Position numbers and translations under genes: made by a program
Part shown: piece after piece, positions 11,411 through 41,119 of the stretch
Position numbering within the stretch: the first letter of the stretch is position 1
How the letters are laid out: each line of letters opens with the position of its first letter
Notes under the pieces: model-generated
Database searches by the model: none
Told to the model about the DNA's origin: nothing
Seen by the model: only the letters and a program-made list of their open reading frames with translations
Origin: Lunatimonas sp.
GTDB taxonomy: Bacteria; Bacteroidota; Bacteroidia; Cytophagales; Cyclobacteriaceae
NCBI GenBank assembly: GCA_035460985.1
Contig: DATHWC010000062.1
Location: 6,792 to 70,791, forward strand
DNA length: 64,000 bases
Direction: 5' to 3'

Positions 11411-12016
11411 TTACTTTGAATAAAGTTCAACAATGAGTTGTTCTTTAATATTCTCAGGGATATCCTCTCTTACAGGAATACTTACGAATTTTCCACTAAA
11501 GGAAGTACCGTCCCATTCCAACCATGAAAACCGGTTGGCGGCGCGGCCTCTTAAACTTTCCGTGATGGCTTCCAAGGATTTTGAACGCTCACGAACAGCT
11601 ATAACATCACCTGGTTTCAAGGTATAAGAAGGAATGTTTACCAACTCTCCGTTTACCAGAATATGCTTGTGGGAGACCAACTGACGGGCACCTCTACGGG
11701 TAGGCGCTATACCCAACCTGTAAACAGTGTTGTCTAATCTGGCTTCCAGCAGTTGCAACAGGTTTTCACCAGTTACCCCTTTTTTCCTTGAGGCGATATT
11801 AAACATCTTCGCAAATTGTCTTTCCAATATGCCGTAGATGTATTTCGCTTTTTGTTTTTCCATCAACTGGATGGCGTATTCAGACTGTTTCTTCCTTCTA
11901 CCTCTTCCGTGCATTCCCGGAGGGTAATTCTTTTTCTGAAGTACTTTACCTTGCCCTTCGATCGGTTCGCCGAATTTCCTGGCAATTTTTGCTTTGGGAC
12001 CTCTATATCTAGCCAT
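11411..12016 (-). CDS. rpsD: 30S ribosomal protein S4
   Basis: MARYRGPK and [13 protein letters not shown] motifs. Confidence 0.99.
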
Positions 12017-15996: not shown

Positions 15997-16515
15997 CTAC
16001 CCATTAAATACTTTAGCTAATTTAACACTTCTTTGTTGAGATACAGCAATAGCATCTCTCATATGCTCCAACGCATCCACAGTCGCTTTCACCACATTGT
16101 GGGGGTTTGAGGAACCTTTGGACTTGGCCAGGATATCAGAATAACCTGCACTTTCCAATACCGCCCGCATTGCACCGCCTGCCAATACTCCAGTACCTGG
16201 AGCAGCTGGCTTGATCAACACGAATCCGCCTCCAAATTTCCCAAGCTGCTCATGAGGAACAGTACCTTTATACAGAGGAACTTTTATCAAATTCTTCTTA
16301 GCGTCTTCTATACCTTTTGTAATAGCATCTGTCACCTCGTTGGCTTTGCCTAAGCCATAACCAACGATTCCGTTGCCATCTCCCACCACTACGATTGCAG
16401 AGAAGGAGAATCTTCTACCTCCCTTTACAACTTTAGCGACACGGTTGATAGCCACTACTTTTTCTTTTAATTCAGTTTCAGTAGCCCTTATGGGTTTCTT
16501 TCTTATCTGGGACAT
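15997..16515 (-). CDS. rpsE: 30S ribosomal protein S5
   Basis: [16 protein letters not shown] motif. Confidence 0.99.
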
Positions 16516-24836: not shown

Positions 24837-26954
24837 TTAGGCCTTTTCTCCTTTAACCTTGGCAATTACTCCCTCAGCAATGTTGTTTGGCACAGGCTCA
24901 TAGTGATCAAAGGTCAGCGAGGCAGTTGCCCTACCTGACGAAATCGTTCTAAGATCCGTTACATACCCGAAAAGCTCGGATAAAGGAACGTTTGCCTTGA
25001 TTACCGTGGATGTTCCTCTGGTATCCATACCCTTCATCAAACCCCTTCTTCTATTCAAGTCGCCTGTGATAGGACCTGTATATTCTTCAGGTGTGAGAAC
25101 TTCAACCGCCATGATTGGCTCCAACAATTGCGGCTTGCATTTTCTGGCTGCTTCTTTGAAACCAATCCGTGCGGCAAGTTCAAAAGAAAGTGCATCGGAA
25201 TCGACATCGTGAAAAGAACCGTGAAATAATCTTACTTTCATCGACTCGATAGGATATCCAGCCAAAGGTCCGTTTTTCATGGACTCATTAAATCCTTTTT
25301 GGATAGAAGGGATAAATTCCTTAGGAATAATACCACCGACGATACCATTAACAAATTCCAATCCCGGCTTGATTTCGTTAGTTTCAGGATCTGCAGGTTT
25401 TGGTCCTAATTCAAATGATATGTCCGCAAATTTACCTTTACCACCAGTTTGTTTCTTATAAACCTCCTTATGTTCCGTAGACGCAAAAAGCGCTTCCTTG
25501 TAAGCAACCTGGGGTGCACCTTGATTGATCTCTACCTTAAATTCTCTTCTGAGTCGGTCGATAATGATCTCCAAGTGTAATTCACCCATCCCTCTAAGGA
25601 TAGTCTGACCTGTTTCGTGGTCGGTATTAACCTGAAGCGTAGGATCTTCTTCCACCAATTTGGAAATTGCCATTCCCAGCTTGTCGACATCCGCTTGCTT
25701 CTTAGGCTCAATTGCGTATCCGATAACTGGCTCAGGGAAGACCATGGATTCCAACACAACTTTACGCTTTTCATCGCAAAGGGTGTCACCTGTCTTAATA
25801 TCTTTAAACCCAACTACCGCCCCAATATCACCAGCCCGCAGGCTATCGATTTGATTCTGTTTGTTGGCATGCATCTGAAATACCCGGGAGATTCTTTCCT
25901 TGTTTCCAGACCGTGTGTTGTGAATGTATGAACCTGATTCCAAAACGCCTGAATACGCCCTGACGAAGCATAACCTTCCCACAAATGGATCGGTCGCAAT
26001 TTTAAATGCTAGACCAACAAAGGGCTCACTTTCATTTGGTCGAATAACGACTTCTTCTTCTGAATCAACTCCGTGCGCAGTAATATCGTCCTTGTCCATG
26101 GGAGATGGCAACAGTTCCATCACCAAGTCAAGCATCGTCTGCACGCCTTTGTTCTTGAAAGATGACCCACAAACCATAGGAACGATTTTAAGATCGATGG
26201 TAGCTTGTCGCAAAGCAGCTAGTATCTCCGATTCTGTAATGGAATCCGGATCTTCGAAAAACTTCTCCATCAAGGACTCATCGTAATCAGCGACGGCCTC
26301 CAACAGATGCTCCCTGTATTCCGCAACTTCCTCCACCATGTCCTCAGGAATCGGTATTTCCTGGAAGGTCATTCCAAAATCGTCCTCATTCCAAATGATT
26401 GCCCGGTTGTTGATCAAGTCAACAACTCCTCTAAATTTATCTTCAGCACCAATAGGAAGCTGCAATGGAACAGCATGACTGCCCAACATTTCCTTTACTT
26501 GCTTACATACCCCTAAAAAATCGGCTCCTGAACGGTCCATTTTGTTGACAAAACCTATGCGGGCTACCTTATAATTATCAGCAAGTCTCCAGTTAGTCTC
26601 CGACTGAGGCTCCACACCGTCAACCGCACTAAAAAGAAAAACCAATCCATCAAGTACACGAAGTGACCGGTTAACTTCCACTGTAAAATCCACGTGGCCT
26701 GGGGTATCAATGATGTTGATCTGATATTTGTTATCTCTGTAATTCCAAAAAACAGTAGTTGCAGCGGAAGTAATGGTAATACCCCTCTCCTGCTCCTGCT
26801 CCATCCAGTCCATAGTCGCAGCCCCGTCATGAACTTCTCCGATTTTATGGCTTACCCCTGAATAAAAAAGGATCCTTTCCGTCGTTGTTGTCTTTCCGGC
26901 ATCAATATGCGCTGCAATACCAATGTTTCTGGTAAATTTTAAGTCTCTTGCCAT
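24837..26954 (-). CDS. fusA: Elongation factor G
   Basis: [28 protein letters not shown] and GMGELHL motifs. Confidence 0.99.
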
Positions 26955-26960
26955 TATCTA

Positions 26961-27428
26961 TTAAAATCTAAAATGAGAGAATGCTTTATTGGCTTCTGCC
27001 ATTCTATGGGTGTCGTCTTTTTTCTTAACCGCTGCACCTTCGCCTTTGGCTCCTGCAATGATTTCTCCTGCAAGTCTATCCATCATGGTTTTCTCTCCCC
27101 TCTTTCTGGCAAACGTAATCATCCACTTGATACCCAAGGACACTTTTCTTTCCGGTCTAACTTCCATTGGTACCTGGAAAGTGGCTCCACCAACTCTACG
27201 ACTCTTTACTTCTACAGCTGGAGTGATATTGTTAAGTGCTTTTTTCCAAACCTCAAGACCATTCTCACCTACTTTATCCTCTACTTTTGCTACCGCATCG
27301 TAGAAAATTCTGTAAGCAATACTTTTCTTCCCATCTACCATCAGGCAGTTTACAAACCTGGTTACCAACGTATCATTGAACTTTGGATCAGGAAGAATAT
27401 ACCTCTTTTTAGGTTTTGCTTTTCTCAT
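26961..27428 (-). CDS. rpsG: 30S ribosomal protein S7
   Basis: [16 protein letters not shown] and [15 protein letters not shown] motifs. Confidence 0.99.
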
Positions 27429-27450: not shown

Positions 27451-27861
27451 TTATTTCTTCTTTGCCGGTGCAGCTGCTGCTCCTTTGCCTGCCTTAGGAC
27501 GCTTTGCGCCATATTTAGACCTGCCTTGTTTTCTGTCTTTTACCCCTGCGGTATCCAACGCGCCACGGATGATGTGGTATCTTACACCCGGAAGATCTTT
27601 GACCCTTCCTCCTCTGATAAGCACAATAGAGTGCTCTTGAAGATTGTGTCCTTCACCTGGAATGTAGGCATTGACCTCTTTTCCGTTGGTTAACCATACT
27701 CGAGCCACTTTCCTCATCGCTGAGTAAGGCTTCTTAGGGGTAGTTGTGTACACTCTGGTACACACCCCTCTGCGCTGCGGACAGGCATCCAAAGCCCGTG
27801 ATTTGGACTTTGTCTCGAGGGTATTTCTACCTTTTCTTACTAACTGTTGTATAGTAGGCAT
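27451..27861 (-). CDS. rpsL: 30S ribosomal protein S12 (two unusual substitutions)
   Basis: [17 protein letters not shown] and [12 protein letters not shown] motifs; PYSA replaces the usual PNSA and VWL replaces VRL. Confidence 0.99.
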
Positions 27862-32719: not shown

Positions 32720-35700
32720 TTAGTCAAGAGTAATTTCCAATGCAAGACCACGTAATTCGTGTACCAATACATTAAAGGATTCCGGAATGTTAGGTTTCGG
32801 AAGGTTTTCCCCTTTAACTATGGCTTCATACGCCTTGGCCCTGCCAATTACATCATCTGACTTCACGGTAAGAATCTCTTGAAGCACGTGCGAAGCACCA
32901 AATGCTTCAAGTGCCCAAACTTCCATTTCTCCAAATCGCTGACCACCAAATTGCGCTTTACCGCCCAAAGGCTGCTGCGTAATCAGTGAATAAGGCCCAA
33001 TAGACCTAGCGTGCATCTTGTCATCCACCAAGTGACCCAATTTCAGCATGTAGGAAATCCCCACAGTGACTGCCTGATCAAACATTTTACCACTAAGACC
33101 ATCATACAGATACGTTCTACCGAAACTTGGCAAACCTGCTTTCGTCAGTTCAGCAGCTACCTCTTCAGTGGTTGCCCCATCAAAGATAGGAGTCGCATAT
33201 TTCTTGCCTAACCGCATACCGGCCCAGGCTAGGACCGTTTCGAAGATCTGTCCAATGTTCATCCTGGATGGTACGCCCAAGGGATTCAATACGATATCCA
33301 TAGGTGTGCCGTCTTCCAAGAAGGGCATGTCTTCATCCCGGACAATTCTGGCAACGATACCTTTGTTACCATGGCGCCCCGCCATCTTATCCCCTACTTT
33401 CAGCTTACGCTTTTTCGCCACGTACACTTTGGCAAGTTGAACAATTCCAGCAGGCAGTTCATCACCCACTTCAAGGGTGAATTTATCCCTCTTGAAGATA
33501 CCGGAAATTTCATTTCTGGTATTGGTGTAATTCTTCACCAATTGCTGTACCAGCGAATTGGTATGTGCATCGTCTGTCCAGTCATCTAAGATGATATCTG
33601 AAATCAGGTTGGCTTCCTCTGCTACGTTGTAGTTACTCTCATCCCTATAGGGGTTCTTTGCGGGAAAGAGATTGTTCTCAATGTTCTGATGGTTGAATTT
33701 CATCCCTTTAGTGATGATTTCATCCCCAAACTTATGCCTCACCCCATTGGAAACTTTTCCGTCCAGCAACACAACCAACTTTTGGATCATTCTTGCTCGA
33801 ACTACCAAAAGATCCTTGCCATATTTCTGCTTCAGTTTCTCCACCTCAGCTTTTGCTTTTACACGAAGATCCTTATCCTTTTTAGGTCTGGAGAAAAGCT
33901 TGGTTTCGATTACCACTCCGTTAAGAGAGGGCGACGCTTTCAATGAAGCATCCTTCACATCACCTGCTTTGTCCCCAAAGATGGCACGAAGTAGTTTTTC
34001 CTCCGGAGTTGGATCAGTTTCACCTTTAGGGGTGATTTTACCGATTATGATATCCCCTTCCTTCAATTCAGCACCTACACGGATTATACCGTTTTCATCC
34101 AAATTCTTAACCGCCTCTTCCGAAACGTTTGGAATTTCCGAGGTAAGTTCTTCTTCTCCTCGTTTGGTATCTCTAACTTCAAGCTGAAACTCCTCTATAT
34201 GGATAGATGTAAATACATCTTCACGGACAACCCGCTCAGAGATAACGATCGCATCCTCGAAGTTATAACCCTGCCAAGGCATATACGCTACAAGTAGGTT
34301 TTTACCCAGTGCAAGTTCCCCATTATTGGTAGAATAACCCTCTACCAAGACCTGTCCCTTAGTAACCCGTTGGCCTTTAAGAACCAATGGAGTCAAGTTG
34401 ATCGTAGTATCTTGGTTGGTTCTACGGAATTTTGTCAGCAAATAAGTTTTATACTCATCGCTGAAATTAACCAGTAAATCCTCTTCAGTAAGATCATACT
34501 TAAGTACTATCTTCTTGGCATCAACGTAATCGATCACCCCATCTGCCTCTGCGCGAATCAGCGATCTGGAGTCAATTGCCGCCTTGCCTTCCAAACCGGT
34601 ACCTACAATAGGCGCCTCGGCTTTCAGCAAAGGAACTGCCTGACGCTGCATGTTGGAACCCATCAAAGCCCGGTTGGCATCATCGTGTTCCAAGAAAGGA
34701 ATCAATGAAGCTGCCACGGAAACAATCTGATTTGGCGCAACATCCATAAAGGTGATTTCAGACGGATCCAACACAGGGAAGTCACCTTCAAATCTTGCCT
34801 TTACCTTATCGTTGATAAATTTACCTTTATCATCCAAGGGTGCATTTGCTTGCGCGATATTATTATCATCCTCTTCCTCGGCAGTTAGGAACACAATATC
34901 TTCACTGACCATGCTTACCGTGCCGTCAGCTACTTTTCGATAAGGTGTCTCCAAGAAGCCCATGCTATTCACTTTGGCATGAACACATAGCGAGGAAATC
35001 AATCCGATATTCGGTCCTTCCGGCGTTTCAATAGTACAAAGCCTACCGTAGTGGGTATAGTGAACGTCCCTTACTTCAAAACCCGCACGCTCTCTGGATA
35101 GTCCACCGGGACCCAAAGCAGAAAGCCTACGCTTATGCGTCAGTTCGGCAAGCGGATTGGTTTGATCCATAAACTGTGAAAGCTGATTGGTACCAAAGAA
35201 AGAATTGATCACGGAAGACAATGTCCTGGCGTTGATCAAGTCAACGGGTTTAAAATCCTCGTTGTCCCTTACGTTCATTCTCTCACGAATAGTACGGGCC
35301 ATTCGGGCAAGACCTACCCCAAACTGGCTGTACAATTGTTCTCCAACTGTCCTAACTCTCCTATTGCTTAAGTGATCAATATCATCGACCACAGCTTTGG
35401 AGTTGATAAGCCCAATCAAATACTTCACAATGGATATGATATCCTGGGTCGTAAGAACGATTTTATCAGGATCTATACTCAGACCCAATTTTTTGTTTAT
35501 TCGGTATCTACCAACTTCTCCTAAGTCATACCGCTTGTCGGAGAAAAACAACCCGTGAATAACTTCCCTGGCAGTCGCTTCATCCGGAGCCTCAGTATTC
35601 CTAAGCTGTCGGTAAATAACCTCTACCGCCTCTTTTTCAGAGTTGGAGTTGTCTTTTTGCAACGTATTGTATATAATGGAGTAATCTGCCACGTTCACAT

Positions 35701-36595
35701 CCTCCCGGTGGAGAATGATGCTTTTAGTGGAAGAATCCAAAATCAGATCTATATCTTCGTCGGTAAGAATAGAATCGCGCTCGAGTAGCACTTCGTTCCT
35801 GTCTATGGAAACCACCTCTCCGGTATCTTCATCCACAAAGTCCTCCACCCAGGTTCTAAGAACCCTCGCGGCTAACTTACGACCGATTACCTTTTTCAAA
35901 TTGGATTTATTGGCATCCACTTCCTCTGACAGACCAAACAGATCAAGTATCTCCTTATCGGAACCGTATCCGATCGCCCGTAGCAAAGTCGTTACTGGAA
36001 ATTTCTTTTTACGGTCAATGTAGGCATACATCACATTATTGATGTCGGTAGCGAATTCAATCCACGAACCTTTGAATGGAATGATCCTTGCCGAGTATAA
36101 TTTCGTCCCGTTTGTATGCTTACTTTGCGCAAAGAACACACCTGGTGAGCGGTGCAACTGGGAAACGATAACTCTCTCGGCTCCGTTGATTACAAAGGAT
36201 CCCTTTTCGGTCATGTAGGGAAGATTTCCCAAAAACACTTCCTGTTCGATGGTTTCGAAATCCTCATTGTCTTCATCTGAACACAACAACCGAAGTTTCG
36301 CTTTCAAAGGAACGGAATAAGTAAGTCCCCGGTCGATACATTCGGAAACATTGTACTTGGGAGGATCTACGGCATAGTCAATGAATTCTAGGGTAAAATT
36401 TTCCCGAGAGTCACTGATGGGAAAATTTTCAGAAAACACTTTGAAAAGACCATCCTGCCTTCTCTTTTCTGCGGGAGTATCAAGCTGAAAAAAATCTTTG
36501 AAGGATTGCAGCTGAATATCGAGAAAATCCGGATAGTCTTTGACTACCTTAATAGATGAGAAACTTTTCCTTTCGGTTTGATTCTGGATAGCCAA
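32720..36595 (-). CDS. rpoB: RNA polymerase beta subunit
   Basis: [30 protein letters not shown] and GGQRFGEME motifs; TTG start. Confidence 0.99.
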
Positions 36596-39931: not shown

Positions 39932-41119
39932 TTAGTCCAAGATCTCAGTCACCTGACCGGCACCTACTGTCCTGCCACCCTCCCGGATTGCAAATCGTAG
40001 TCCCTTCTCAAGAGCAACTGTACTCAACAAATTCACTTCGATTGTAACGTTATCACCTGGCATTACCATCTCCACATTTTCAGGAAGCGTGATTTCGCCG
40101 GTTACGTCTGTCGTTCTTAGGTAGAACTGGGGACGGTATCTGTTGAAAAAAGGAGTATGACGTCCACCTTCTTCTTTTGAAAGCACGTACACTTCAGCTT
40201 TGAAGTGAGCGTGGGGCTTCACAGATCCGGGCTTGCAGATAATCATACCTCGTCTGATTTGCGATTTTTCGATGCCTCTAAGCAACAAACCTACGTTGTC
40301 ACCGGCTTCACCTCTATCCAAAATCTTACGGAACATTTCCACACCAGTGACGGTTGATTTCAAACCTTCCGCACCCATACCGATGATATCTACCGCCTCA
40401 CCGGAATTGACTACACCTCTTTCGATTCTACCGGTAGCAACAGTACCACGTCCAGTAATGGAGAATACGTCTTCTACAGGCATTAAGAAATCCTTGTCGA
40501 TTGCTCTTTCAGGAAGAGGAATGTGCTCATCGACAGCATCCATCAATTCCATTACGGTAGCTTCCCACTTGTCTTCACCGTTAAGTGCTCCAAGGGCAGA
40601 ACCCGCGATAACTGGAATATTGTCTCCATCAAACTCATAGAAAGAAAGTAACTCTCTTACTTCCATCTCAACAAGTTCCAGAAGTTCTGGATCATCCACC
40701 AAATCGACTTTGTTCATGAAAACCACCAAAGCAGGAACACCTACCTGGCGGGCCAACAGAATGTGCTCTCTAGTCTGAGGCATTGGTCCATCAGTCGCCG
40801 CAACTACCAAGATAGCACCGTCCATTTGGGCGGCACCCGTAACCATGTTTTTTACATAATCAGCGTGACCTGGACAGTCAACGTGTGCGTAGTGTCTCTT
40901 TTCTGTCTGATACTCTACGTGTGAAGTATTGATGGTAATACCTCTTTCTTTTTCTTCCGGAGCGTTGTCGATAGAAGCGAAGTCTCTTAATTCAGAAAGA
41001 CCTTTCCTTGCCAATACCGTAGTAATGGCAGCAGTCAAAGTAGTCTTTCCATGATCGACGTGACCAATCGTACCTATGTTAACGTGTGGTTTGGAACGGT
41101 CAAAGGTTGCTTTTGCCAT
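39932..41119 (-). CDS. tuf: Elongation factor Tu
   Basis: [26 protein letters not shown] and [10 protein letters not shown] motifs. Confidence 0.99.

Follow-up and report, generated by a model that had tools for sequence, protein, structure and literature searches.

As assembled, the rpsL gene of this Lunatimonas sp. genome encodes a ribosomal protein uS12 in which tyrosine stands for asparagine at position 46 and tryptophan for arginine at position 56 (N46Y and R56W). The chances are about even that this pair is a real two-step S12 allele of the accuracy or streptomycin type, carried by the sampled organism or population. This explanation fits best because the changes are specific to one gene, radical, both non-synonymous, and located in a classical selection target, one of them at a documented streptomycin-dependence site. 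Coordinates below refer to the window, which is the whole 64,000-nucleotide stretch of DNA that was analysed.

The rpsL gene and its genomic setting

The reading frame that carries the two changes (Table 1) belongs to uS12 by full-length profile match, operon context, and copy number. In a profile search it matched TIGR00981 (rpsL_bact) across residues 1-124 of 124 with 224.5 bits, against a curated cut-off of 112.95 bits, and it scored 139.8 bits with PF00164. It is the only rpsL copy in the 5.79-Mb assembly, and the gene order around it is the usual one (rpoB, rpoC, DUF3467, rpsL, rpsG, fusA, and then the S10-spc-alpha genes). In this protein the PNSA loop, otherwise universally conserved, reads PYSA; the protein is still S12, the motif alone being altered.

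Table 1. Positions of the rpsL gene, its two unusual codons, and other window genes discussed in the text.
Feature	Position in window	Strand	Remarks
rpsL, ribosomal protein uS12, 136 aa	27451..27861	-	TIGR00981 and PF00164 matches
rpsL codon 46, TAC (Tyr); site of the universally conserved PNSA-loop Asn (N45 of mature E. coli S12)	27724..27726	-	AAC (Asn) in congeners
rpsL codon 56, TGG (Trp); R55 in E. coli mature numbering	27694..27696	-	AGG (Arg) in congeners
DUF3467 protein, 108 aa	27961-28287	-	PF11950, 116 bits
rpsG (S7)	26961..27428	-	Downstream in operon; no lineage-unique change
fusA (EF-G)	24837..26954	-	No unique change at conserved sites; E207V at a variable position
rpsD (S4)	11411..12016	-	100% identical to sister species
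rpsE (S5)	15997..16515	-	S167A only, near C-terminus
tuf (EF-Tu)	39932..41119	-	N194D only
rpoB (RpoB)	32720-36595	-	Lineage-unique K559T (AAG>ACG)

Both substitutions had been picked out in a sequence-only reading of the window, and on re-reading, its coordinates, residues, and codons are correct, including the plus-strand A at the first base of both codons, 30 bp apart. That reading had also taken each change to be one first-position step from a canonical codon, which the congeners bear out: their codons stand in an otherwise near-identical codon string, making each change a single A>T transversion on the coding strand. Position 56 lies in a beta-strand, two residues after R53. None of the classical streptomycin-resistance alleles (K42/K43, K87/K88, R85/R86, P90/P91) is present, and K43, K44, R86, K88, and P91 are all canonical. 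N46Y does fall on a streptomycin-dependence-type site, N45, of the list given in PMC3884664 (P41, K43, P44, N45, P90, and G91 in E. coli numbering).

Residue 13 of the same protein is Asn (window 27823-27825, minus strand), where most Cyclobacteriaceae S12 proteins have Thr. This codon shows no nucleotide difference from the sister species, so it is an ordinary lineage change common to both and stands outside the anomaly. The gene between rpoC and rpsL is also of some interest in its own right, as it encodes a small protein of unknown function inside a core transcription-translation cluster. Its position is kept in relatives, and the DUF3467 protein is 99% identical to that of the sister species and about 77-79% identical to those of other genera.

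The rpsL site lies in the middle of the longest contig of the assembly (77 kb), and its flanks are colinear with the sister species at ~95% identity. The assembly consists of 429 contigs (N50 20 kb, the smallest 1.6 kb) and has no assembled rRNA operon, pointing to a metagenome bin, or else to a short-read draft in which the rRNA operon has collapsed. Because the assembly resembles a metagenome bin, laboratory selection with streptomycin cannot be assumed.

Rarity of the two substitutions

Both residues had been called near-invariant in the sequence-only reading, which proposed comparing rpsL with that of sister strains, and this description holds. N46 and R56 were found in 29 of 29 relatives inspected, three of them congeners and the rest other members of the family or order. 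The names given to near-identical proteins point to Cyclobacteriaceae as the family. The 150 most similar S12 sequences among the 50%-identity representatives of 1.84 billion proteins contain 151 instances of the motif, all of which have N at position 46, with R at position 56 in 146 cases and K in the other 5. Drift is unlikely because the two residues are essentially invariant.

Larger searches gave isolated cases. A search of 5.8 billion protein clusters, biased to words containing the variant residues, returned singletons only, among them an N/W protein (1.1-kb contig), a Y/R protein (0.5-kb contig), and a small number of H, I, S, or K variants. No second N46Y and R56W double mutant was found in this search, and the exact double-variant protein comes from one contig and one source only. 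Three S12-like proteins (P0016, 216 aa; P0136, 211 aa; and P0237, 1701 aa) have two matched stretches or are very long fusions, and are probably gene-calling or assembly artefacts around rpsL.

A degenerate DNA pattern for T-T-P-K-K-P-Y-S-A was scanned through GTDB with one genome per species (185,579 species), yielding 13 matches where ~9 are estimated to be expected by chance, and only one of these is a true rpsL. This sole other true rpsL with N46Y in the species genomes belongs to a Saprospiraceae MAG (JANMJN010001129.1:5259-5669, plus strand) and reads PKKPYSA. It lies on a 5.7-kb contig and carries N46Y with nothing else unusual, and the MAG's nearest relative has the canonical sequence. 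The Saprospiraceae sequence is either an error or an independent rare variant. No lineage with a fixed Y46 or W56 was found in the 5.8-billion search or the GTDB scan. A scan of JGI metagenomes yielded no second sample of the species; its one genus-level contig is that of a congener (species G002) with a canonical sequence.

Substitution pattern of the neighbourhood

The two changes stand out from an otherwise quiet neighbourhood. When 44 conserved window genes (~11,700 aa) were compared with five relatives, with 3-5 relatives compared per site, 12 residues were unique to this genome at places where all compared relatives agree. Ten of these 12 are conservative (e.g., I>V, K>R, N>D, and Y>F); the remaining two, which are radical, both fall in S12 (136 aa). 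A hand calculation from these counts gives ~0.12 expected in S12 and a probability of ~0.006 for two or more, so that the S12 pair exceeds chance. No frameshifts were seen in the 44 genes.

Branch changes were assigned over 24 kb by a three-way nucleotide alignment, which gave 437 changes for this genome and 390 for the sister. The coding changes on this genome's branch comprise 383 synonymous and 33 non-synonymous ones, the latter mostly conservative, and the branch is otherwise under strong purifying selection. A:T>T:A changes account for 16% of branch changes, an unremarkable share. General sequencing error and drift are poor explanations because the neighbourhood is clean and the branch length matches that of the sister. 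General sequencing error or a mutator was rejected on the same figures, namely the 437 versus 390 branch changes, the 383 synonymous and 33 mild non-synonymous changes, and zero frameshifts. The clean 24 kb implies that the local error rate is low and that the anomaly is specific to rpsL, as selection on rpsL would give.

This result bears on how the substitutions had been interpreted from sequence alone. The sequence-only reading weighed a real ribosome variant and a base-calling error, and both remain live options; its argument that error is plausible since the other ribosomal proteins look normal fails, as the clean neighbourhood points the opposite way.

Partner genes

Suppressors of restrictive S12 alleles classically map to S4. 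Compensation by S4 or S5 had been thought worth looking for if the variant were real, but such changes are absent (Table 1), and a comparison with relatives found no compensation of note in S4, S5, EF-Tu, or EF-G. Set against the genotype of a streptomycin-dependent (SmD) mutant with a second-site suppressor, the genome has a second S12 change, R56W, along with an unchanged S4, a mildly changed S5, and a 16S rRNA assembled over 141 nt only. This fragment comprises nt 1-141 at a contig end (C345:19652-19792) and differs from the sister only in the V1 hairpin.

The rsmG gene is intact and without unique change, and rimO is intact with two mild C-terminal changes, so loss of either gene was rejected. 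The K559T change of RpoB falls where the sequence is variable, ~60 residues downstream from the region of rifampicin resistance. The latter region is canonical, and the idea of a doubly marked (Str/Rif) laboratory strain was likewise rejected.

Origin of the double substitution

The placement of the PNSA loop at the decoding centre, as given in the sequence-only reading, agrees with published work. Residues 44-47 of E. coli S12 form the PNSA motif, which is conserved universally and adjoins A1492/A1493, and the side chain of N45 hydrogen-bonds D88 and R49, coupling the PNSA and PGVR loops (PMC4224418). The substitutions K42A and R53A result in hyperaccurate ribosomes (PMC4224418). According to PMC3884664, SmD mutants of E. 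coli include N45 substitutions (Timms & Bridges 1993, cited therein), and P90 dependence alleles are internally suppressed by K42 changes.

By analogy with these mutants, N46Y, which swaps the Asn of the PNSA loop, may distort or restrict the decoding site, given that substitution at the equivalent E. coli residue leads to streptomycin dependence, a condition that would reflect a strongly restrictive, distorted decoding site. R56W would remove a conserved positive charge from the same beta-strand as R53, whose loss alters accuracy. It may serve as the intragenic partner of N46Y, either as a suppressor that restores drug-free growth or as an epistatic enhancer. The allele would confer resistance, dependence, or a change in accuracy; like this phenotype, the order of the steps is presumed, and the selecting agent is proposed to be a streptomycin-like aminoglycoside, met either in nature or in an antibiotic-treated enrichment. 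Against a real allele, K43, K88, and P91, where classical resistance arises, show no change, the allele is known from one assembly of the species, and the single N46Y or R56W changes elsewhere lie on short metagenome contigs or in one bin, where they may also be errors.

A bolder form of this explanation is put forward only tentatively. The genome may represent an uncultured Cyclobacteriaceae population with a rebuilt decoding centre, in which a dependence-type change of the PNSA Asn is kept viable by an undescribed intragenic partner, R55W in E. coli numbering. If true, this would imply either sustained contact with a compound like streptomycin, natural or in an enrichment, or a naturally hyper-accurate ribosome, and it would make R55 a new suppressor or accuracy site in S12.

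A local sequencing or assembly artefact is a possible, though less probable, origin of the pair. The organism would then really carry Asn and Arg, and the assembly two linked miscalls, which might stem from a handful of faulty or damaged reads in a low-coverage stretch of a metagenome assembly. The 30-bp spacing lets both changes sit on a single read, the genome, with its many small contigs and no assembled rRNA operon, resembles a metagenome bin, and the allele has been found once only. Isolated N46Y or R56W changes on metagenome contigs of 0.5-1.1 kb (P0052 and P0019), and N46Y on the 5.7-kb Saprospiraceae contig, from a bin with a canonical nearest relative, form the pattern expected of rare errors. 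The screen moreover covers very many windows, so rare artefacts are expected to turn up in it. Set against these points is the absence of excess changes, frameshifts, or other radical replacements in the 24-kb neighbourhood. Both changes, moreover, are non-synonymous first-position changes at near-invariant residues of a classical selection target, one of them at a documented SmD site, and their sequence contexts have no common motif. A>T is not known as a typical systematic short-read error, and graph assemblers retain the majority path, both of which count against an artefact.

It is rather improbable that the variant is real and unrelated to aminoglycosides, reflecting instead a lineage-specific retuning of decoding accuracy or speed, compensation for an unseen change in 16S rRNA or another partner, or fixation of a slightly deleterious allele in a bottleneck. 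[quoted passage not shown] 2011 as described in a preprint (bioRxiv 10.64898/2026.09.05.749517), and helices h18, h27, and h44 of 16S rRNA are missing from the assembly, leaving room for co-variation there. Neither change, however, is present in any related lineage; a bottleneck would be expected to show itself in further radical replacements among conserved genes, of which none was seen. At conserved sites, S4, S7, and EF-G are free of changes unique to this lineage, and S5 and EF-Tu have one mild change each.

AAC codons are typical targets of diversity-generating retroelements, and both changes are at coding-strand adenines, one of them in an AAC codon, but adenine hypermutation by such an element, or gene conversion from a second diverged copy, is effectively refuted: rpsL is an essential, single-copy gene that does not encode a variable ligand-binding protein, and nothing elsewhere in the genome duplicates any rpsL segment or resembles a template repeat of one (the best secondary blastn match is 28 nt, E = 0.16).

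Significance

If real, the allele is new but falls within a textbook class. It would be a rare natural case of change at two nearly immutable decoding-centre residues, and would provide a pair of changes for probing how the PNSA loop and the R53-R55 strand cooperate in tRNA selection and the streptomycin response. It would moreover mark target-site resistance in a way that resistome screens based on gene catalogues would overlook. Should the pair be an artefact, it is a useful warning that read-level confirmation is needed when a metagenome bin shows isolated radical substitutions. In either case, existing knowledge of S12 is unchanged.

Comparison with known S12 alleles and ribosomal mutations

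The closest parallels are the SmD alleles in the PNSA region of E. coli S12 (P41, K43, P44, and N45; Timms & Bridges 1993, as cited in PMC3884664). N45 is the same residue as N46 here, near h44 and A1492/A1493, and N46Y, like these alleles, arises from one base change and introduces a bulkier residue. Unlike them, it is accompanied by a second change, and tyrosine at this site and its phenotype are undocumented in the searched literature, which yielded no published allele or phenotype for N45Y specifically or for R55/R56. The host also differs from the laboratory selections that gave the E. coli alleles, being an uncultured-looking member of the Cyclobacteriaceae.

Intragenic suppressors and double rpsL mutants have already been documented, and the present pair resembles the latter in combining two missense changes: the first hits a dependence-type site, and the other lies elsewhere in the portion of the protein that faces the rRNA. 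It differs in that its second site is R55/R56, for which a suppressor role is presumed. Environmental exposure to streptomycin co-selects rpsL R86S with rpsE D142N and an rsmG frameshift (PMC13390409), and the Lunatimonas pair would be similar in that several ribosomal mutations act together. In contrast with that set, both changes are inside rpsL, rsmG is intact, and S5 has a mild C-terminal change only.

The classical streptomycin-resistant and hyperaccurate alleles (K42/K43, K87/K88, R85/R86, and P90/P91, together with K42A and R53A; PMC4224418) affect the same protein and the same functional neighbourhood. Every classical resistance residue is unchanged in the Lunatimonas protein, unlike in the resistant alleles, yet R56 shares its strand with R53 at a distance of two residues, and its replacement by tryptophan would thus be expected to cause a comparable loss of positive charge towards the rRNA.
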